Shown piece after piece: positions 10,510 through 57,762 of a stretch of DNA of 64,000 nucleotides. The stretch spans positions 258,111-322,110 of the forward strand of contig CBDBPW010000001.1 in assembly GCA_965209045.1 (NCBI GenBank), in the 5' to 3' direction. The DNA is from Paracoccaceae bacterium (GTDB lineage Bacteria; Pseudomonadota; Alphaproteobacteria; Rhodobacterales; Rhodobacteraceae). The notes beneath the pieces are model-generated. The model had not been told where the DNA came from. It worked only from the letters and a program-made list of their open reading frames with translations, and did no database searches. Within the stretch, counting starts at the first letter, position 1. Each line of letters begins with the position of its first letter. A program made the translations under genes and the position numbers.

Positions 10510-11847
10510 TTATTGCGCGGCTCGGTAGTCGGCCCAAGTGTAGTAGCCCTCGCGTTCCATGATGGCGCGCAGCTCTTCATTTGCCTTGTCCATGATCGGC
10601 TGGATCGGATCATCAGTGGTGATGACCTGCGTGAGAGCCTGGCCGAGGACGTCGATGTTGATTTCGTTCCATTCCGGAATCAACGGGCGCCAGTCCGGGT
10701 CGGCGCAGGGAAGCTGATCGGCCACGATCGGGTAATCGTCGAACCCTTCCGTGTTGTTTTGAAGCGTCGATATGCGAACCGGATCGCCTCCGAGTTCGAC
10801 CATGCGCTGGTCGCCGGCCTTGTTGGTCATGTACTGGATGAAGAGGAACGCCGCCTCCCTGTTTGGCGCGTTTGCCGGGATGCCCATGGCGAATCCGCCG
10901 GTTTCCGAGCCGCAACGGGTTCCCACCGGATGGAGGGCGTAGCCGACCTTGCCATCGATCTTCGACAGGTTTGGATTGCGCGACATGGCCGCGATCTTGA
11001 GCGTGTCCAGATGCATGGCGGCATCGCCTTGCAGGAAGGCTGCCGCAGCTTCACCGAAGCCGAAGGTCTCGATGCCGACCGGCCCGGTCTTGGCGACGTG
11101 ACGCATGAATTCGGCAGCCTTCACGGCCTCGGGCGAGTTTACGACCGGGTTCCACTCGTCGTCAAAGATCTTGCCGCCCAACGGGGCGAGATGCAGCAAC
11201 CAGCCTGCGGTCACCTGGTGACCAGTCTTCCCGCGCGAGGTCAGCGCCGGAATGCCCGCGTCATGCAGCTTGGTCATCGCTGCGGCCAGTTCGTCATAAG
11301 TAGTCGGCACTTCGATGCCCTGCTCTTCGAAGATGTCCTTGCGGTAGGCAAGGATCGAGGTCTCGGCCCCGAACGGAATGCCGTAGAGAGCGCCGGAAAC
11401 CCCAGGCATGTATCCCTTCTTGCCACCGACAACGCCGCCGTTCTGCAAGTAGGCGCCGGCAACATCATCGATGTCATATTGCGGATCGACAAGCGAGCCA
11501 GACGTGAAATACTGGCTGAGCGGGGTCAAGAGGCCCTTCGATACGTACTCGCCCTTCCACATGACCACCCAGGAAACGACATCGTATTCGCCCTCCGGCT
11601 TCGACATCTCGAGGATCTGGCGGTCACGCAGCTTGAGATATTGCAACGCATCGATCTCAACTTCGATACCGGTTTCCTCTGTGAATTCATCCACTAGTGC
11701 CTCCGCCGCACTGAAATGCGCAAGCGCGGGCCAGCTGACCACGAGCGTAGTGCCCTCGTATTTCTCGTACGGGTTGGCAAATGACGCGGTTGCACACAGA
11801 AGCGCCGCAACAGTGGCCGTCGTCTTCTTCATTAGTCCATATGACAT
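10510..11847 (-). CDS. ABC transporter extracellular solute-binding protein (sugar family 1)
   Basis: AAAGGAGGATACC precedes ATG 11847. Signal peptide MSYGLMKKTTATVAALLCATASFA. Confidence 0.9.
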   Translation of the reverse strand: MSYGLMKKTTATVAALLCATASFANPYEKYEGTTLVVSWPALAHFSAAEALVDEFTEETGIEVEIDALQYLKLRDRQILEMSKPEGEYDVVSWVVMWKGEYVSKGLLTPLSQYFTSGSLVDPQYDIDDVAGAYLQNGGVVGGKKGYMPGVSGALYGIPFGAETSILAYRKDIFEEQGIEVPTTYDELAAAMTKLHDAGIPALTSRGKTGHQVTAGWLLHLAPLGGKIFDDEWNPVVNSPEAVKAAEFMRHVAKTGPVGIETFGFGEAAAAFLQGDAAMHLDTLKIAAMSRNPNLSKIDGKVGYALHPVGTRCGSETGGFAMGIPANAPNREAAFLFIQYMTNKAGDQRMVELGGDPVRISTLQNNTEGFDDYPIVADQLPCADPDWRPLIPEWNEINIDVLGQALTQVITTDDPIQPIMDKANEELRAIMEREGYYTWADYRAAQ

Positions 11848-11880
11848 GGTATCCTCCTTTGTGTCATTCAATGGAATTCC

Positions 11881-12981
11881 TCAGGTGACGGTATCACCCG
11901 TCGTCTTGTCGAACAGGTAGATTCGATTGGTATCGAACATGTACGTTCCGCTGGTCAGCGGTGCGCTGTCCGGGCCAACCTCGATTGCGGCCGAGACTTG
12001 TCTGCCGCCGATGTCTGCAGCCAGAAACTGGCTTGAGCCGATGTATTCCGCAACTTTCACGTCCAAGTCGACCGGTGCGAGAAAAGACGCCTCGGTCCCG
12101 CCGTCGGCGGGCCGGGCTGCGAAATGCTCAGGCCGAAGGCCAACGATGACCTGGCGCGCCCCGTGCCCCTGCGCGGCCTTGTGCAAACGCGGCGGCAAAG
12201 GCAGGTCGAAGCCCTGTCCCATGACGCGCAGTCCGTCGCCCTGCAACTCCGCGTCGAGGAGATTCATCGAGGGCGAGCCGATGAAGCCCGCGACGAACAG
12301 GTTCCTGGGACTGTTATAGACTTCGCGCGGTGTGCCGACCTGTTGAACGTGCCCCTTTTCCATGATCACGATTCGGTCGGCCATGGTCATGGCTTCGATC
12401 TGGTCATGGGTCACGTAGACCATCGTGCGGTCGAGCCTTTTGTGCAGGATCGCCAGCTCGGTCCGCATGGTCGAACGCAGCTTGGCATCGAGATTCGACA
12501 AAGGCTCGTCGAACAAGAAACAATACGCATCGCGCACGATGGCACGTCCCATGGCGACACGCTGACGCTGCCCACCCGACAAGTCCTTGGGCCTGCGTTC
12601 CAGAAACTCCGTCAGTTCCAGCATCTCGGCCGCGGCCCGGACCCGGCGCGCGACCTCTTCCTTCGACGTACCCGCCAGCCGCAACGCAAAGGACATGTTT
12701 CCAGCTACATCCATATGGGGGTAGAGCGCATAGGACTGGAACACCATGGCAATGTCGCGCTCCTTGGGTCGAGCCCAAGTGACGTCCTTGCCCGCAATCT
12801 GGATCGTGCCGCTGGTCACCGGCTCAAGCCCCGCGATCATCCGCAGCGTCGTTGACTTGCCGCAGCCAGAGGGTCCGACAATGACGACGAACTCACCCTC
12901 GTCAAAAGACAGGTTCAGCGGCGGAATGACATTCACCGTGCCGTAGAACTTGGTCACGTCAACAAGTTGCACACCGCTCAT
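11881..12981 (-). CDS. ABC transporter ATP-binding protein (MalK/UgpC type)
   Basis: Walker [10 protein letters not shown], signature [14 protein letters not shown], Walker [12 protein letters not shown], and a TOBE-like C-terminal domain. Confidence 0.95.
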
Positions 12982-13958
12982 CAGCTTTCCTCTTCGGACG
13001 GTCGTCCCGCCTCTGCGCCCCGATTGAACTTGATCCGCCGAATGATCTCCTCGTCACGCCGACGCTTGAAGGCCTCAGCGTCCCGTACGGTCCAGTCATA
13101 AAACCCCCGGCCCGACTTCATGCCCAGTTTGCCGTTGCTGAACAATTCGCCGACCGGGGTATCGGCGGGGTCGGCGACGGTTGACAGGTCGGCCCAAACC
13201 GCCTTGGCCGCGTCTGAGTTGATCAAGTCCAGTCCGGCAAGGTCAGCGTGCTCGAATGCCCCCATGGCGGGAAGGCGCGATGCGTAGCCGACTTTCAGGA
13301 TCGTGTCGCAGGCCTTTGGGGTCACCAGATCCCGGCCGACGAGTGATGCAAACTCGCGCAGCACCGCATGCTGGATTCGCGACCACAGAAAGCCTGGAAT
13401 GTCCGGGCATGTGACCGGCGTCTTGCCAGTTTGCGCCAAGAGCGCGGTTGTGGCCGCGACGGCACTGTCCGAACTGCCGCACCCAGGCACCACCTCGACA
13501 AGCTCGACCAGATGGGCGGGTTGGGCATAATGGGCAATGCAGAAATTCTGCGGGCGCCTGAGGTTGGATTGCAGAGCGCTGGCACTCAGGGCGGAAGTAG
13601 TGGAGGACAGGACTGTCGTCACTGGTGCAGCCAGTTCTGCCTCACCCAGCAACGCCCGCTTCAACGTGAGATCCTCCGCTATCGCCTCAATAACAAAGCC
13701 TGCATCCACGACGGAATTGGCAAGGTCGGCCCGAGGCGTGATCCGTTCCAGAACCGCCGTGCGGTCCCCGGCATCAGTCAACCCATGTCCCACGAGAAAG
13801 TCAAAGTCTTCTGTACAGCGATCAAGCGCGGGACCAAGCGCCTCGGCACGACGTCCCCAGAGCGTCACATGCGCTCCTCCCAAGGCAAGGGACAGGGCGA
13901 TCTGCCCGCCCATTGTACCCGAGCCCAGCACGGCGCATCTCGGTAGGTCAGCCGACAT
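12981..13958 (-). CDS. 3-hydroxyacyl-CoA dehydrogenase family NAD-binding protein
   Basis: Rossmann start [20 protein letters not shown] and C-terminal [14 protein letters not shown]. The track ORF starts at TTG 13988; I prefer ATG 13958. Confidence 0.8.
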
Positions 13959-16913: not shown

Positions 16914-18914
16914 CGGAACTTCACTGACCTGAAAGACGGTTTTGGCCAAGCGTGACTGGGTTTTTGCCGGATTCAGCCTGTCACGCTTATGTAAGCATCC
17001 AGGTCCGCGCCGAGCAGCCCGAACGCCTTCGCCTGCAGTTCGGTCGGCTCCGTGGCGATCCGGAACAGGCTGTCGGGCCGTCCCGGAAGCGAGGCGTCGT
17101 TCAGCGTCAGCGTGCCGAGGTCGTCGAGCAGGGTGCGGAAGCTGTGGACCGGCAGCCCGTCGGGGGTCCGCTTCGTGTCGGCCTTTGCCTTCGCGCTCTT
17201 CGAGACCTCGGCCTTCTCCACCGGCGAGCTGCGCTGCGTCCGGGCGCCCTCGCGGTCGTCGTCCTCGAACAGCATCGGCGCGAGGCGCCGGCGCATGTGC
17301 CATTCCACGTGGAGCGCGAGCATGCACATGAACACGTGCGCCTTCACGTGGTCGGCCGAATACACGTAGACAGGACGGATGCGCAGGTCGGTCTTCGCGT
17401 TGCGGAACGCGCGCTCCACGCCCGCGAGCGACTTGTACGCATCGACCGCGGCCGCCGTCCCCATGGCCTCCGGTCCCAGGCTGGTGCGGATCACGTAGAC
17501 GCCGTCGAGCCTGGCCTCGGCGGCGATCCGGTCCTCGCGGCGGCGCCAGGCGATGCTGCCGTCGGCGACGTCGACCTCGAGATGCTTGCCCACCTTGCGG
17601 CGGTTCACGTCCCGGCCCACCCGGCGGTCGATCGCCGCCCGGCCCTTGAGCCGGCCCGAGCGCACCGACGCCGCGATCCCGTGCAGCGCCTCCTCCGTGG
17701 CCTTGAGCAGGTCCTCGCGCTTGCGCCGTCTCTCCTCGCGGAGCCGGGGGTTCAGGCAGACCATCAGCCGCTCGCCGGGGAAGTCCGGGCCCGTGACCTC
17801 CGCCACGGCGTCGGGCACCAGCGCCTCGGGCACGAGCGGCGCGGGCGCGCCGTCCGGGCCCTCCCTCAGCAGCTTGCGGATGTCCGCCGTCTTCAGGGCC
17901 GAGATCCAGTCGAGCCCCGCCGGCTCGAGGTCCTCGCGGATCCGGGCCGTGGTGAGCATCCCCCTGTCGCCCACCAGCGCGACGCGCCCGATGCCGAAGC
18001 GCTTCCGGACCTTGTCCACCTGGCTTGAGACGGTGGAGGGGTCGGACGCGTTGCCGGGGAAGACCTCCACGGCGACGGGACACCCGTCGGAGGCGCAGAG
18101 CATCCCGAACACGATCTGCCGCTTGCCCTTCTTGCCGTCGCGGTTGTGGCCGAAGGCCGCGAGCGTGCACTTCGAGCCTTCCAGGTAGCTGGAGCTGACG
18201 TCGTACAGGATGAGCGTGCCGTCCTTCAGGTACCTGTTCGCGAGGCTCCGCTCGATCCAGGGCTGGCGCTTCAGCAGCCAGTCGAGCATGTCCAGCACCT
18301 CGTTGCCGGAGACGGGCCCGAGCCCGAGCAGGGATCCGAGGCTCGTCGAGGCGGTCTCCGGGTCCAGCGCCCGGGCCGTCGCGAGCTTCGAGGCCGGGCC
18401 GATGATCCGCGCGGCGACGGCGGCGAGCGCGAGGTCCCGCATGCGTTCCGCCTTCCGGCCGAGGATCCTCGCCATGCCGAGCGAGCGCATCGTGCCCAGC
18501 ACGGCGGCCACGTGGCCGTGGGGAAGGGAGCGGCGGATGGCGAAGGCCTTGCGGGGGTCGTCGAGGACGACCCCGCCCCTGAGCACGGCGCGGAAGCCGT
18601 CGACGACGGCGGGATCGAGGCCGGAGAGGTTGGCGACGGTCTTGTGGCGCACGCGCCGTCCCTCGCACCATGTCTTCCTGAGGAGGACGGCCCTGGTTCC
18701 GTACTGGTTGGGGATCACGTCGATTCGGATGGACATCCGCTTATGTAAGTTGTTTCCTGCCTGTCATTCCGCAAATAAGGCAAGGGATCGGCGATGTCAA
18801 CGAACTTCTTATGTAAGTTGGAATCCCGCACCGGGCGCCCCGTGACCGGCAAGAGGCCGTTGCGTTTCAGTGCGTTGTGCGGGATGAGCGGCCGATCAGG
18901 GGCTGGAAGTTCCG
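16914..18914 (-). mobile_element. complete IS element, IS4-superfamily (best guess IS1634 family), about 2.0 kb
   Basis: Terminal inverted repeats CGGAACTTCACTGACCTGA (16914 inward) and CGGAACTTCCAGCCCCTGA (18914 inward): the first 9 nt are identical, and a further CCTGA aligns at the same offset. Flanked by the 6-bp direct repeat TCTAGT. Single 587-aa transposase ORF. Confidence 0.85.
16973..18736 (-). CDS. DDE transposase (IS1634-like)
   Basis: 587-aa intact ORF with LYDVSSSYLEG..RDGKKGKRQIVFGML..VALVGDRGM..YKSLAGVERAFRNAK segments typical of IS4/IS1634-type DDE transposases. Confidence 0.85.
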   Translation of the reverse strand: MSIRIDVIPNQYGTRAVLLRKTWCEGRRVRHKTVANLSGLDPAVVDGFRAVLRGGVVLDDPRKAFAIRRSLPHGHVAAVLGTMRSLGMARILGRKAERMRDLALAAVAARIIGPASKLATARALDPETASTSLGSLLGLGPVSGNEVLDMLDWLLKRQPWIERSLANRYLKDGTLILYDVSSSYLEGSKCTLAAFGHNRDGKKGKRQIVFGMLCASDGCPVAVEVFPGNASDPSTVSSQVDKVRKRFGIGRVALVGDRGMLTTARIREDLEPAGLDWISALKTADIRKLLREGPDGAPAPLVPEALVPDAVAEVTGPDFPGERLMVCLNPRLREERRRKREDLLKATEEALHGIAASVRSGRLKGRAAIDRRVGRDVNRRKVGKHLEVDVADGSIAWRRREDRIAAEARLDGVYVIRTSLGPEAMGTAAAVDAYKSLAGVERAFRNAKTDLRIRPVYVYSADHVKAHVFMCMLALHVEWHMRRRLAPMLFEDDDREGARTQRSSPVEKAEVSKSAKAKADTKRTPDGLPVHSFRTLLDDLGTLTLNDASLPGRPDSLFRIATEPTELQAKAFGLLGADLDAYISVTG

Positions 18915-50711: not shown

Positions 50712-53006
<2,295 letters not shown>

Positions 53007-53017
53007 CTAGGCTCTTT

Positions 53018-53590
53018 ACCCAAATTTTGACATTCCTGGCTGATTTGTCACCGTCGCCAAAGGCAGTTCACAAGGAGTTCGAGGCATGAGGGGCGACCGG
53101 CACGACATGAGCGACGCGGAGCGGGAAATCCTCCGCCCTGTCCTTCCCCGGAAGCACCAGGGCCCGCGACGGGTGCATGACCGGAGGGTGATGAACGGCA
53201 CCTTCTTCGTGCTTCGCACCGGCACGCCCTGGCGCGACCTCCCGGAGCGGTACGGGCCGTACACGACCTGCTTCAACCGCTACAACCGGTGGAGCGGGAA
53301 CGGCACCCGGGCGTCGATCATGGAGCGGCTTCAAGGCGTGCGGGCAATGACGGCGGGGACGACGACGGCCCGCCCGGCTCGGTTCGACTGCGCATGGTGG
53401 ATTCGTCTTCGGTGCGCGTACACAGGCGTCACGCCGTGGGTCTCCCGGGCCAGTCGGTCGGCTGCAGGCAGGCCAAGACGTTTTTCGCCGGCCTTGAGCG
53501 TGACGAGACGGTGGTCGGCGACCGGACCTCTGACACCGACGCCTTACTTGAACTGATCGGAGAGGTCGGCGCAACCGCCGCGCCTGCGAC
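53018..53590 (+). mobile_element. IS5-family (IS427-group-like) element, left end plus a degraded 5' two-thirds of the transposase; truncated at its inner side
   Basis: MRGDRHDMSDAEREILRPVLP..RRVMNGTFFVLRTGTPWRDLPERYGPYTTCFNRYNRW, then a frame change to ..MVDSSSVRVHRRHAVG... It ends abruptly at about 53590 with no catalytic C-terminal part. Confidence 0.8.
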
Positions 53591-53599
53591 CAGGCTGGT

Positions 53600-54295
53600 T
53601 CAACTCTCTGCCTCTTGCATTCTGGCCATTTTTTGCAGCCTTCGGACAACAAGATGCACACGTGTCGAGGGGTTCTCCTGAAAGGGTGGCTGCCCCTCCT
53701 TGGACGCCTCTTTTAGAGCTTTGTCCGCGCGCGAACATGCTTCGTCTCGCAAGGGCATGATCTCGTCGTAGAACGCATCACAAGTCGCCTTGTCGTACGA
53801 AGCAATGCAGCCGTGGGACGCCTTAAGGTCCTGGATCAGATCTTGCGTTGGTGATCCGGCACCCTCACCGATTGAATAAGGTCTGCGCTCGCCAGAGACG
53901 TGGAATAGATTCCAGATCTCGAAGCTGGGAATGGATGGAACGGCCACGATGGCTTGCCCTCTTAGGGCTTTGCGAGGTTTGAGTGTCGCGGCTTTGGCGA
54001 TGGCTTCATCGTAGGTGGCGTGCCTGTCACGGTCAAAGACGAGGAACACGTGCTCAAAATCAGGATCGTCCGCCAAGAGACCTTCGGCGAATTCAACGAC
54101 ACTGATCAGGGCCGAGCCCCCGTCTCCGGTAATTGTGACACTTGCCGTGGTGAGGCCCAGTTCCCGGATCATGCGGCGGAAGTACTCGGGTTCGGTCTTG
54201 CTGCCTTCGGTGACGATCATGGCGCGTTCCCGCTCTTCGCGGCACGCGGGCCGCCGCCGGGTGTCCCGAGGTGACTTGCCACGTCTCCTGACCAT
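53600..54295 (-). CDS. RloB-like (Toprim-fold) protein, AbiLii-like
   Basis: 231 aa. MIVTEGSKTEPEYF (conserved Toprim Glu in the RloB N-motif) and HVFLVFDRDRH (DxD). Its start is 5 nt after the ATPase stop. Confidence 0.8.
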   Translation of the reverse strand: MVRRRGKSPRDTRRRPACREERERAMIVTEGSKTEPEYFRRMIRELGLTTASVTITGDGGSALISVVEFAEGLLADDPDFEHVFLVFDRDRHATYDEAIAKAATLKPRKALRGQAIVAVPSIPSFEIWNLFHVSGERRPYSIGEGAGSPTQDLIQDLKASHGCIASYDKATCDAFYDEIMPLRDEACSRADKALKEASKEGQPPFQENPSTRVHLVVRRLQKMARMQEAES

Positions 54296-54300
54296 GTCTG

Positions 54301-55557
54301 CTACCCTGTCAGGCGCGGCACCGCCCCGTACCGTCCCTGCAGGTACCCCTTTCGGAAGGGCCGCTCGTCACGTGTCCTGTAATCCGAAAAAGGAATCAGT
54401 CGGGAGGCAAGGTCGTCGCCCTTCTCGACAAGCCAGATCTGATCGCGCCCGATGCAATCTTCTTCCGTGACGGTGGGGTCATGGGTGGTGAAGATAATCT
54501 GGGCATTGTTCGGGTTGGTTTTGGACGAGCAAAACATCCGAATGATGTGGCGGAAGGCGAGGGGGTGCAGGTGTGTGTTGAGTTCGTCCACGACAAGCGT
54601 GTAGCCCTCATCGAGAGTGTCCATGACCGGGCCAATGAGATCAAACAAGGCGCGGGTGCCTGTAGATTCGTCATCGAAGTCCAAACGTGCCTTTGCCCCA
54701 GTCTCGTCCTTGCGATAGGTATAGACTTCCAAAATCCTCATCTCCTTTGGAAATAAGGACTTCAATCGGTTCTGCCGTTCCCTGGGCAGGCTCTTGAAGT
54801 CGTCAGTTTCAAAGGCGCTCCGCTCTTCGGCATTCACGTCTTCCAGCCGCAAGTCAGTATCCTCCAGAATTGCCATCACCCGTTCCTTCCAGGCATCTTC
54901 GTCAAGGCGGCTGGCAGTGTATGGCCCGATTGATTCAACATCGAGATTCGTTTGCAACCCTTCGCTCAGCCAACTGAAGGGGCGCTCCAGGGACTCGGCG
55001 TTGAGCTGTATGGCGGTGCTGAGAATGAGGGCATTTTCGCGTGTTTGCGCTTTCCAGCTTTCACGTTCGCCTTTGAGATGTGTCGCACTTGTCTCCCACT
55101 GGTAGGCGTCACTTTCGGAATCATATTCGCGGGTGAAGATCTGGCGCTGCTTTCGCGTTGCGGATGGGCGTTCGAAGAGCCATTCCTCCCAGATTCGTTC
55201 GGCATCGTAGGCGAAGCCGTACTGGAACAGGCTGCCGCTATGCAGGAAGGTCACCTCGAACTCTGTCGGTGCGTTCCGCCATTTGGAATGAAAGAGATGC
55301 GGCTCGTATTCCTCGATGAGCTTTTCTTCGTTCTTGAACGAGTCTCGGACGAGGGCGCGGACCGTCCTCATGCTCCCGACAAGTCCGGACTTCCCGGACC
55401 CGTTGGCCCCAAAGAGGCAAGCCTGCTGCAGCACGTGTGGCGCACCGTTGTTGCCGGTAGCCACGGCGTTTGGTGTTCCGCTGTTCAACGCGGTCATCAG
55501 GAACCTTTGCCTGTCCCGGAAGGATCGGTGGTTCTGGACTGAAAATTCGACGAGCAT
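54301..55557 (-). CDS. AAA/ABC-type ATPase (AAA_15/AAA_21 class), AbiLi-like
   Basis: 418 aa from ATG 55557. Typical N-terminus MLVEFSVQNHRSFRD, Walker A GANGSGKSG, Walker B-like TLVVDELNTHLHP and IIFTTHDP. Confidence 0.85.
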   Translation of the reverse strand: MLVEFSVQNHRSFRDRQRFLMTALNSGTPNAVATGNNGAPHVLQQACLFGANGSGKSGLVGSMRTVRALVRDSFKNEEKLIEEYEPHLFHSKWRNAPTEFEVTFLHSGSLFQYGFAYDAERIWEEWLFERPSATRKQRQIFTREYDSESDAYQWETSATHLKGERESWKAQTRENALILSTAIQLNAESLERPFSWLSEGLQTNLDVESIGPYTASRLDEDAWKERVMAILEDTDLRLEDVNAEERSAFETDDFKSLPRERQNRLKSLFPKEMRILEVYTYRKDETGAKARLDFDDESTGTRALFDLIGPVMDTLDEGYTLVVDELNTHLHPLAFRHIIRMFCSSKTNPNNAQIIFTTHDPTVTEEDCIGRDQIWLVEKGDDLASRLIPFSDYRTRDERPFRKGYLQGRYGAVPRLTG

Positions 55558-55639
55558 AAGAGACGATCCAAATATGCACCATGTTTCTGACAGAAGTTGC
55601 AAATATAGGCACTTATTTTCGATGCAAAGCGAAAGACAC

Positions 55640-56038
55640 TCTCATTCGCAGAAAATTTCCAATTTGGCAGCGGGATCGAACGGCTGGTTTGCGAACCTGA
55701 GGAGCGGCACACGGCCAGCCATCGGATTGCGGCCGCGATATGCACCTTGCACTCGGACAGCAGTCGGCTTCGACTGCGTCATCGTCAAAGGCGCCGCGCT
55801 CGTATTTCTCGATCCAGATGCGGATGAGCCTGCGGCAAACATCATGACGTTCGCTCTGGGTCCGGAGCGCCTCACCATGCAGGTAGGCCTCGACCACCTC
55901 GCTTTTCTTCCCGGTGCTGTGTCTTCGGTGTCTCTCGGTCATGGAATCTCCTTGCAGAAGGCCCCGGGTGGGGGAAAATTGAATCGCCAATTTTTCCAGC
56001 CGGAGGGGCGCACTCCAATAGTGAGCTACTTTGTCAAT
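55640..56038 (-). mobile_element. IS3-family element stub: left end plus a frameshifted, truncated orfA
   Basis: AAGGAGA precedes ATG 55942. MTERHRRHSTGKKSEVVEAYLHGEALRTQSERHDVCRRLIRIWIEKYERG resembles an IS3 orfA HTH protein. The coiled-coil part continues in another frame. No orfB is present. Confidence 0.65.
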
Positions 56039-56250
56039 GCCTATTGACAGAAAATGCCGTTCATCGCGCTCCCGTCCTGCTGCCATTCCGGCTCCCGATG
56101 CTTGTGTGGAAGAACCAAGCGGAGAATTTCCCGCTCCGCGTCGCGCATGTCGCGCCGGTCGCCGCTCACGCCTCGAACTCCTTGCAAACCGTTCTCGGCA
56201 AAGTTGGCAGATCAGCCCCGAATGTCGAAGTCTGGGTGAACGGCCTAACG
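56039..56250 (-). mobile_element. second IS5-family copy, outer end plus the first ~42 transposase codons, inverted relative to the 53018 copy
   Basis: The reverse complement of 56247-56163 aligns without gaps with 53018-53102 at roughly 75-80 percent identity by my count. It encodes (V)SGDRRDMRDAEREILRLVLP..MNGIF, then breaks at the IS3 end. Confidence 0.75.
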
Positions 56251-56434
56251 GCTTAACTTGTCCGGCTTCCCGTTGACAAGGAAGACCGAAGCGGTTCGGC
56301 ATGCCCGGCGCGGTCCTCATCCTTGCTGAACAAGTCCGCCTTGCACCTGGCCCTGCTCACCGGCCTTTCGGATGCCTTGACATTGCCCCACGCAACGCTG
56401 GCGCCATCAGGGTCCCGTCCTGCCCGGCACGTGG

Positions 56435-57061
56435 TCAGACGATGGACGCCTCGGTGGCCGCCCGGATCTCGTCGCGGCTGACATCCGGCGCGGTCTCGAG
56501 AATGTGCAGCCCCTTGTGGCCGACTTCGAGAACGCCGAGATTGGTGATGATCAGGTCCACTACTCCCTTGCCGGTCAGTGGAAGGGAGCACTCCTTCAGC
56601 AGCTTCGACGCCCCGTGCTTGTTCGTGTGGTCCATGACGACTATCACGCGGCCTACCCCGGCCACGAGATCCATGGCGCCGCCCATCCCCTTGACGAGCT
56701 TTCCGGGGATCATCCAGTTCGCCAGGTCGCCCGCTTCGCTGACTTCCATCGCTCCAAGGATGGCGACGGCGATCTTGCCGCCCCGGATCATCCCGAAACT
56801 CTGCGCGCTGTCAAAATACGCCGTGCGCTTCAGTTCGGTGATCGTCTGCTTGCCCGCGTTGATGAGATCGGGATCCTCTTCGCCCTCGAACGGAAACGGA
56901 CCCATGCCAAGCATTCCGTTCTCGGACTGGAGCGTGATGTCCTTGGCACCGACATAGTTCGCGACCAGCGTCGGAATGCCGATGCCGAGATTCACGTACA
57001 TGCCGTCTTCGAGTTCCTGGGCGGCGCGCTCCGCCATCTGGTTCCTGTCCCAAGGCATCAA
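56435..57061 (-). CDS. scoB: 3-oxoacid CoA-transferase subunit B
   Basis: 208 aa with YVNLGIGIPTLVANY and SENGMLGMGP motifs. Confidence 0.9.
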   Translation of the reverse strand: MMPWDRNQMAERAAQELEDGMYVNLGIGIPTLVANYVGAKDITLQSENGMLGMGPFPFEGEEDPDLINAGKQTITELKRTAYFDSAQSFGMIRGGKIAVAILGAMEVSEAGDLANWMIPGKLVKGMGGAMDLVAGVGRVIVVMDHTNKHGASKLLKECSLPLTGKGVVDLIITNLGVLEVGHKGLHILETAPDVSRDEIRAATEASIV

Positions 57062-57762
57062 GCGGTCTCCTTCTTCTGCACCGTGCGCTGTTCAATCCGC
57101 TTCTCATGCTCCCCCTGGATCAGCCGATGCACGTAAATCCCGGGCAAGTGGATGTGGTCAGGATCGAGGCTCCCCGTGGGCACGATCTCCTCGACCTCCA
57201 TCACGCAGACCTTCCCGCACATGGCGGCGGGCGGATTGAAATTGCGTGCCGTCTTGCGGAAGATCGCGTTTCCGGTCTCGTCCGCCTTCCAGGCCTTCAC
57301 GATGGAGAGATCGGCGAAAATGCCTCTCTCCAGGATGTATGTTTCGCCGCCGAATTCCTTGTGCTCCTTGCCCTCGGCGACCTGCGTGCCGACACCGGTT
57401 CTCGTGTAAAAGCCAGGAATGCCGCAGCCGCCAGCGCGCATCCGCTCTGCAAGGGTGCCTTGGGGATTGAATTCGATCTCAAGCTCTCCTGACAGGTATT
57501 GCCGCATGAACTCGTCGTTTTCGCCGACGTAGGAACTCATCATCTTCCTGACCTGTCTGGTCTCCAGCAGGATTCCGATTCCGAAATTGTCGACGCCGGC
57601 ATTGTTCGACGCGAACGTGAGACCCTTGACCCCGCTGACCTGGATTGCCTGCAGCAGGAGTTCAGGTATTCCGCAAAGGCCGAACCCTCCCGCGGCAATC
57701 AGCATGTCGTCGCGCAGGAGCCCGTCGAGCGCTTCGGTCGCGTTCGCAAAGATCTTTTTCAT
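57058..57762 (-). CDS. scoA: 3-oxoacid CoA-transferase subunit A
   Basis: 234 aa with MLIAAGGFGLCGIPE. Overlaps scoB by 4 nt. Confidence 0.9.
   Translation of the reverse strand: MKKIFANATEALDGLLRDDMLIAAGGFGLCGIPELLLQAIQVSGVKGLTFASNNAGVDNFGIGILLETRQVRKMMSSYVGENDEFMRQYLSGELEIEFNPQGTLAERMRAGGCGIPGFYTRTGVGTQVAEGKEHKEFGGETYILERGIFADLSIVKAWKADETGNAIFRKTARNFNPPAAMCGKVCVMEVEEIVPTGSLDPDHIHLPGIYVHRLIQGEHEKRIEQRTVQKKETA

Follow-up and report, generated by a model that had tools for sequence, protein, structure and literature searches.

The abortive-infection system AbiL of Lactococcus lactis was isolated by its anti-phage phenotype (Deng et al. 1999) and is known to act after phage transcription. Reviews of 2024–2026 list it as a system composed of an ATP-binding cassette (ABC) ATPase, AbiLi, and a TOPRIM protein, AbiLii, with a mode of action that is still open (PMC13064643, PMC11464382), in line with the initial annotation of the locus described here, in which the mechanism was called uncharacterised in this lineage. 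AbiL is grouped with PARIS, OLD, Gabija and MADS (PMC11464382, PMC13064643, PMC12409363, bioRxiv 10.64898/2026.07.10.737580), phenotype data being confined to the lactococcal prototype. When produced alone in Escherichia coli, AbiLii of Fusobacterium nucleatum is toxic (Dy et al. 2014, PMC3985639). Here we analyse a gene pair of this kind in a 64-kb stretch of DNA from a Paracoccaceae bacterium (assembly GCA_965209045.1, contig CBDBPW010000001.1), hereafter referred to as the window, in the coordinates of which all positions are given; L-numbers denote genome loci of relatives and P-numbers denote database proteins. It is likely that the pair represents an intact AbiL/RloAB anti-phage module, carried as the cargo of a degraded composite of IS5-type insertion sequences (IS; 53010–56245) that was inserted between katG and scoB in a Boseongicola-like lineage of the Paracoccaceae.

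The pair consists of two minus-strand genes, abiLi (rloA-like; 55557..54301, 418 amino acids (aa)) and abiLii (rloB-like; 54295..53600, 231 aa). Both the listing of open reading frames (ORFs; 54301..55602 and 53600..54295) and direct reading of the sequence agree with the initial description of two genes lying 5 nucleotides (nt) apart: the stop codon TAG of abiLi (54303..54301) is separated from the ATG of abiLii at 54295 by cagac. A TTG-initiated, 433-aa form of abiLi is unsupported; since all relatives begin with MLVEFSV, the start was assigned to the ATG at 55557. Matches to Pfam AAA_21 (PF13304; E 1.5e-24, 88 bits against a cut-off of 27 bits) were obtained for AbiLi and to RloB (PF13707; E 5e-25, covering positions 2–195 of the 195-position model) for AbiLii. 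In PADLOC the best matches were the two AbiL models themselves, PDLC02335 AbiLi (E 4.2e-82) and PDLC02337 AbiLii (E 1.5e-19). The genes are adjacent and co-oriented with the ATPase gene first, an order shared by most of the related loci, and thus the AbiL-type assignment proposed at the outset holds. Judged by these profiles, the pair is clearly a member of the known AbiL/RloAB defence family. Database entries P0001 and P0121 are 100% identical, the latter over 206 residues of AbiLii (see below).

AbiLi is a predicted Rad50/SMC-type ABC ATPase of the AAA_21 family and a putative sensor or regulator. The motifs GANGSGKSG, TLVVDELNTHLHP and IIFTTHDP, pointed out earlier, are all present in its translation, and in the family alignment it possesses the invariant residues of Walker A (G50-x-N52-G53-x-G55-K56), of a signature-like motif (S298-x-G300) and of Walker B (D324-E325), together with the near-invariant H359; Walker A, signature, Walker B and H-loop of an ABC ATPase are all found. 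Its AlphaFold2 model (mean predicted local distance difference test score (pLDDT) 88) resembles Rad50, Smc1, the Thermus OLD nuclease 6p74 and Septu PtuA (Foldseek E 3e-10 to 1e-8). By sequence profile, the nearest solved relatives are PtuA-type ATPases associated with retrons and Septu, and an OLD nuclease. The description of PF13304 mentions AbiEii, yet AbiLi is an ABC ATPase and its partner is RloB rather than AbiEi, and a type IV toxin-antitoxin system of the AbiE kind was rejected.

AbiLii, the putative Toprim-like nuclease effector, displays the two motifs noted at first, MIVTEGSKTEPEYF and FLVFDRDRH, and keeps 17 out of 17 invariant columns of a 38-sequence alignment, including E30, E35, D88, D90, E126 and W128. 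Its AlphaFold2 model likewise has a mean pLDDT of 88. Both the motif and the topology fit Toprim, albeit without support from Foldseek or hhalign, so that the Toprim label rests on motifs and the literature. As for the initial designation of the pair as a split OLD with a Toprim partner, the ATPase head matches OLD 6p74, and the Toprim assignment of RloB was not reproduced by either method. Searches of Pfam and PADLOC with AbiLii yielded RloB only and no match to AriB or DUF4435. Database entry P0121 shares 206 residues with AbiLii, all of them identical, but is annotated as a 206-aa protein starting with MIVTEG. We prefer the 231-aa form to this shorter one, because the basic N-terminal 25 aa, with a near-invariant R14, are conserved in relatives; the public annotation of P0121 probably starts too late.

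Pairwise ratios of nonsynonymous to synonymous substitution rates (dN/dS), calculated against five relatives, were 0.17–0.24 for AbiLi and 0.27–0.41 for AbiLii. These values indicate purifying selection on both genes, although, being measured between lineages, they are no proof of current function of the window copy.

We compared the window with five loci (L089, L091–L094) for which the KatG protein falls into the 90%-identity cluster represented by P0241; the named members of this cluster are 'Boseongicola sp.' metagenome-assembled genomes (MAGs). On the left, the element is flanked by katG (catalase-peroxidase; 50712..52877, minus strand), the product of which is 93% identical to P0241, a carrier of PF00141, and on the right by scoB and scoA (subunits of 3-oxoacid CoA-transferase; 56435..57762, minus strand), identified from annotated plasmid matches and from PF01144 in the syntenic loci. 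All five relatives share the gene order dapB-xylB-scoA-scoB-katG-arfB-vut1-mepA, with flanks that are 89–90% identical at the nucleotide level. In each of them positions 53003–56260 of the window are replaced by a short sequence (23 nt in L089), leaving a scoB-katG spacer of ∼330–340 bp. Since the five syntenic relatives are empty at this site, the 3.24-kb element is an insertion specific to the lineage of the window. Together with the occurrence of the cassette in unrelated contexts elsewhere, the empty site bears out the earlier proposal of horizontal acquisition. It also fits an insertion of the element as a unit, a point on which the TA dinucleotide found on both sides (see below) is uninformative. 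When positions 52000–57500 were compared with plasmids by megablast, scoAB and katG were matched and the cassette was not. A tRNA-derived attachment site upstream of AbiLi, considered on the basis of a TTCGA-like motif, was rejected: ARAGORN, applied to the window and to 10 related loci, detected no tRNA gene, and the motif is the end of an IS5 transposase gene.

The intergenic site varies in a more distant relative as well. A Silicimonas MAG with a KatG that is 83% identical (L090, 9001–9882) holds a divergently oriented LysR-family (OxyR-like?) gene in the scoB-katG spacer, which neither the window nor the closer relatives possess. Two contigs from a single metagenome, ERZ25072384, were also found to differ: ctg341686 (L089, 54x coverage) contains the empty site, and ctg341692 (L001, 52x) contains an AbiL pair and an IS5 fragment. 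This suggests that sister genomes carry the IS5-AbiL unit at different sites; L001 and L089 are linked to one genome by coverage only.

The base composition of the cassette differs from that of its surroundings, as claimed initially, albeit the dip is modest: its content of guanine plus cytosine (GC) is 57%, compared with 64% in the flanks. Positions 55001–56000 form the lowest-GC 1-kb bin of the window, and GC at third codon positions is 0.65–0.70 in the cassette genes and 0.72–0.83 in neighbouring genes. A recount of 54721–54780 gave 25 of 60 positions (42%), the figure reported before.

The pair sits inside a 3.24-kb element bounded by two diverged, inverted IS5 left ends. These form an inverted repeat of 199 nt (53008–53206 and 56049–56247) with 76% complementarity, each arm of which is an outward-facing IS5 left end, where a terminal repeat leads into the beginning of a DUF4096/NF033580 transposase. 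The left remnant (53010..53579, plus strand) opens with the outer inverted repeat GGCTCTTTACCCAAATTTTGACATTC, continues into the degraded 5' part of the transposase gene and is truncated on the cassette side. Its ORF (53086–53556) matches DUF4096 (E 1.7e-22) and the NF033580 IS5 transposase model (E 3.8e-24, positions 2–84 of 258). With the IS5 transposase of locus L009 as query in tblastn, approximately aa 1–174 were recognised, with frame breaks; the left piece is 72–78% identical (blastn) to the full-length IS5 of that locus, and ∼520 nt are missing on its inner side. The right copy retains ∼200 nt of its 5' end and probably a short 3' remnant. Its outer, left-end piece (56050..56245, minus strand) carries the inverted repeat GGCCGTTCACCCAGACTTCGACATTC and aligns with the repeat of the full-length L009 element. 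Both flanks are therefore what the initial annotation took them for: on the left an IS5 outer end with a degraded 5' part, and on the right the end of a diverged, inverted second copy. The inner, right-end remnant of the right copy (55666..55760, minus strand) is probable, being robust at 55672–55705 and tentative beyond; when the adjacent cassette is used to anchor the alignment, this 34-nt block is identical to L001 at 27 of 34 positions and to L013 at 29 of 34.

The outer piece of the right IS5 copy is adjoined by the 5' stub of an IS3-type element (55763..56049, minus strand), comprising the outer end, which begins TGTCAATAGGCATTGACA on the minus strand (TGTCAATAGG at ∼56049), and the N-terminus of orfA (codons 1–60, ORF 55942..55763). 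Homologues of this orfA were found by tblastn in 35 plasmids, annotated as 'transposase'; in a Leisingera plasmid the homologue directly precedes an 'IS3 family transposase', and the stub shares 72% identity (blastn) with the left end of an IS3 element in L087. An assignment to IS66 (ISRel24 TnpA) was considered and rejected, the NCBIfam match (E 1.5e-4) lying below the cut-off; because of this and of the homologue in an IS3 context, IS3 is the more likely identity. The stub had been recognised as IS3 before, but its previous limits (56038–55640) need to be moved, as the outer end is at ∼56049 and transposase homology ends at ∼55763; the limits of the whole element are corrected to 53010–56245. 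The initial annotation described each of the three IS pieces as truncated on its cassette side; this is correct for the left IS5 but probably not for the right IS5, given its probable inner remnant at 55672–55705.

Two IS5 copies with outward-facing inverted repeats thus bracket the cargo, as in a composite transposon, and IS5 sequences border the cassette in relatives too. In an Amylibacter MAG (L009) a full-length IS5 is located immediately downstream of AbiLii, in the orientation of the left copy of the window. In L001, L010 and L012 the stretch upstream of the cassette 5' region codes for the C-terminal end of an IS5 transposase, 30–59 aa in length (tblastn E 6e-5, 1e-6 and 4e-13, respectively). 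These downstream and upstream IS5 sequences are observations new to this study. Their position at the cassette borders points to an ancestral IS5 composite transposon, the most economical reading of the sequences being an ancestor with the structure IS5-abiLi-abiLii-IS5(inverted). Later, an IS3 element would have entered the right IS5 copy, which also underwent an internal deletion, while the left one would have been truncated from inside. The L009 element itself (12250–13200) is a full-length IS427-like IS5, the transposase ORF of which reaches the element end and relies on the flanking TA to complete its stop codon TAG. This element could be used as a reference copy for the remnants in the window, and it could supply a transposase acting in trans.

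A TA dinucleotide, resembling a target site, lies outside the left (53008..53009) and the right (56246..56247) IS5 inverted repeats of the window. The intact IS5 of L009 has TA at both ends too; since the dinucleotide accompanies all ends of IS elements of this type, it was rejected as proof of one-step transposition. The element contains no intact or functional transposase, and there is no other IS5 copy in the window, in accordance with the suggestion that the module is now immobilised; both outer IS5 inverted repeats are nonetheless intact and resemble those of full-length IS5, so that the element may still be mobilised in trans. An apparently intact IS1634-family transposase of 587 aa (16973–18736, minus strand; NF033559 E 1.2e-89, above the cut-off), unrelated to the pair, is encoded elsewhere in the window, in its highest-GC kilobase (17001–18000, 72.8% GC).

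Upstream of abiLi lies a conserved, AT-rich 5' region of 108 nt (55558..55665, minus strand) with promoter-like hexamers: TTTGCA (55628..55623) and TATATT (55607..55602), separated by a spacer of 15 nt, and a second hexamer, CATATT (55576..55571), 14 nt before the ATG. The region can be aligned with that of 15 relatives, the most distant of which have proteins 67% identical, and its TTTACA, TATAAT/TATATT and CATAAT blocks are conserved. It may act as a promoter, and both genes are probably co-transcribed from it. The leader had no match in Rfam and the 15-relative alignment yielded no consensus RNA structure; a regulatory or antitoxin RNA was not found.

A database search with AbiLi retrieved more than 5000 homologues. 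Among the closest of these (67–88% identical), Paracoccaceae/Rhodobacteraceae MAGs predominate, many being associated with sponges, and some relatives are annotated as RloA or RloB family proteins in public records. The family is present in 166 plasmid records, including plasmids of 3.8–10 kb from Klebsiella and Enterobacter, as well as in a few phages. Pairs of 418 and 231 aa with a 5-nt gap, 67–85% identical to the window pair, recur in numerous MAGs of Paracoccaceae and sponge symbionts, where their chromosomal contexts are unrelated. In L001, for example, a pair that is 83% identical (418 aa, 5-nt gap, 231 aa) is situated between ftsB/pdh genes and a C39-ABC exporter. Although the query was AbiLi only, an RloB gene directly follows AbiLi in most of the genome loci recovered. 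Nucleotide homology between the window and its relatives is limited to the two genes, ∼110 nt upstream and ∼10–30 nt downstream, and the conserved unit is therefore exactly two genes.

Not all relatives have kept the pair in full. Of 19 close relatives, about 8 have an AbiLii that is frameshifted, truncated or missing; several of these are Illumina assemblies, though assembly errors may still play a part. Downstream of the AbiLi match (∼11250–12000 in locus coordinates), AbiLii is frameshifted in L007, L012, L018, L022, L025 and L027, cut off after ∼40 codons in L021, and absent in L014 and L016. AbiLi stays a single full-length frame in most of the relatives with a damaged AbiLii. The pattern looks like recurrent loss of a toxic effector, and the retention of AbiLi would fit an effector that is costly.

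In the mechanism that we propose, by analogy with PARIS, P2 OLD and Gabija, AbiLi would serve as an ATP-driven sensor and scaffold, oligomerise and keep AbiLii inactive. A phage-derived cue may be sensed by AbiLi through its ATP cycle, upon which AbiLii would be released or activated and would use its acidic E...DxD...E centre to cleave nucleic acid of the host or the phage in a metal-dependent manner. The role of effector is ascribed to AbiLii because the F. nucleatum protein is toxic alone, and tRNA would be its leading candidate substrate, since AriB and P2 OLD are tRNases. Growth arrest or abortive infection would then stop the phage. A wider scenario can be put forward tentatively, and it is rather doubtful: that the AbiL clade spreads among sponge-associated Paracoccaceae as an IS5-composite 'defence transposon', landing at different sites in sister genomes, and that AbiLii is a costly toxin cleaving tRNA or other nucleic acid, its Toprim variant being too diverged to match any solved structure. 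Such a cost, if true, would explain why AbiLii is repeatedly inactivated while AbiLi is usually full-length.

Several results weigh against the module, its mechanism and its history as presented here. Supplying F. nucleatum AbiLi in trans failed to neutralise AbiLii, and the lactococcal AbiLii showed no toxicity in E. coli (PMC3985639), so that a simple sequestration model may be wrong. For AbiLii, Foldseek returned nothing below E 0.015 from the PDB and only another RloB protein from BFVD, hhalign gave no match to P2 Old, and a PDB profile search revealed no solved relative by sequence. The inner remnant of the right IS5 is short and weak when searched on its own (blastn-short, 21 nt to L013, E 0.007). 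One-step insertion of the composite is the parsimonious view, against which stand the similarity of only 76% between the two IS5 copies and the uninformative TA. A standard scan for sigma-70 promoters and terminators called nothing upstream of abiLi, with counts no higher than in shuffled sequence; the putative promoter was missed by this strict scan because its spacer is 15 nt.

The toxicity of F. nucleatum AbiLii by itself also bears on an alternative, according to which the main function of the pair is addiction in the manner of a toxin-antitoxin system, stabilising the transposon or plasmid that carries it, any effect on phages being secondary or absent. The abundance of the family on very small mobilisable plasmids, among the 166 plasmid records, and its location on a transposon here would suit such a function, as would the fitness cost suggested by the frequent inactivation of AbiLii in relatives. 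However, the single published test revealed no antitoxin action of AbiLi in trans, an ABC ATPase of 418 aa is atypical as a labile antitoxin, and addiction would bring no obvious benefit in a chromosome. Considering also that the founding AbiL was found via an anti-phage phenotype, we regard this explanation as improbable.

Less probable still, and in our opinion very unlikely, is that the pair is a silent relic, its ORFs, though intact, having lost expression or function when IS insertions and deletions reshaped the surroundings. The surroundings would allow for it: the flanking IS elements are all decayed, the IS3 stub and deletions come within ∼200 nt of the start codon, a consensus promoter was not called, and decay of AbiLii is frequent in relatives. 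The pair itself argues otherwise, both ORFs being full-length with every invariant residue kept, and the 108-nt upstream region being intact and alignable with that of relatives. A function as an accessory of restriction-modification, like that of Campylobacter RloA/RloB in type I hsd loci, is hardly credible: the name RloB derives from ORFs linked to restriction (Miller et al. 2005) and AbiLi weakly matches the NCBIfam model 'restriction system-associated AAA family ATPase' (E 5e-5, well under the cut-off), but there are no hsd or other restriction-modification genes in or next to the element, the neighbours being katG, scoAB, xylB and dapB, and the cassette homology with relatives comprises nothing beyond the two genes and ∼110 nt upstream.

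Taken as an intact AbiL/RloAB module, the locus leaves the current understanding of such systems unchanged; it is an ordinary specimen and causes little surprise, its value being that of a clean candidate for working out AbiL. The original observation is confirmed and its interpretation supported, with the small corrections given above. AbiL/RloAB is widespread, yet it belongs to the ABC-ATPase and Toprim-like defence families without a mechanism or a solved structure. The present pair offers a compact, intact two-gene example from the Alphaproteobacteria, with a defined insertion history and a defined native 5' region for cloning. The host group is under-studied and the insertion history unusually well documented, and the linkage to IS5 and the recurrent decay of AbiLii hint at how the module moves and what it costs.

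Among the described systems, AbiL of L. lactis plasmid pND861 is the counterpart of the pair, sharing an AAA_21/Rad50-like ATPase followed by an RloB protein and a location on mobile DNA (Deng et al. 1999); the likeness rests on PADLOC and Pfam profiles. Unlike its lactococcal counterpart, the window pair belongs to a marine, sponge-associated alphaproteobacterial host (∼57–64% GC) and is chromosomal, within a decayed IS5 composite. Campylobacter jejuni RloA/RloB, from type I restriction-modification loci, have the same RloB Pfam family and the same AAA ATPase partner but come with linked hsd genes, whereas the window module stands alone.

PARIS, composed of the ABC ATPase AriA and the Toprim tRNase AriB, resembles the pair in combining a separate ABC ATPase with a small effector that has an acidic centre. 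AbiLi matches the AriA model of PADLOC (PDLC02980, E 2e-27), and PARIS is the mechanistic template for the release of a sensor-held effector. However, AbiLii is an RloB (PF13707) rather than a DUF4435 protein and did not match AriB; according to a review it superposes poorly on the AriB structure, and AriA is not among the top 50 Foldseek matches of AbiLi. With P2 OLD and the Gabija protein GajA the pair has in common the ATPase head (OLD nuclease 6p74, Foldseek E 3e-9, PDB profile E 2.5e-4) and the logic of an ABC ATPase coupled to an E/DxD metal-dependent nuclease. These are single chains, whereas here two separate genes are involved, and AbiLii has no detectable sequence or fold match to the OLD Toprim. 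The closest solved relatives of AbiLi include the ATPases of Septu (PtuA) and of retrons Ec78/Ec83 (profile matches 9n69, 9e8z, 9vkz and 8ee4; fold matches 8eea and 8sux); their effector is the HNH nuclease PtuB, not RloB, and neither a retron nor a reverse transcriptase is present here. Finally, the element as a whole is comparable to composite transposons of the Tn5/Tn10 type, in which an inverted IS pair surrounds the cargo: the outer repeats are intact, TA is found at both ends and the site is empty in relatives. It differs from them in that its IS copies are 76% alike, both transposases are lost and one copy is interrupted by the IS3 stub, transposition as a unit being inferred.

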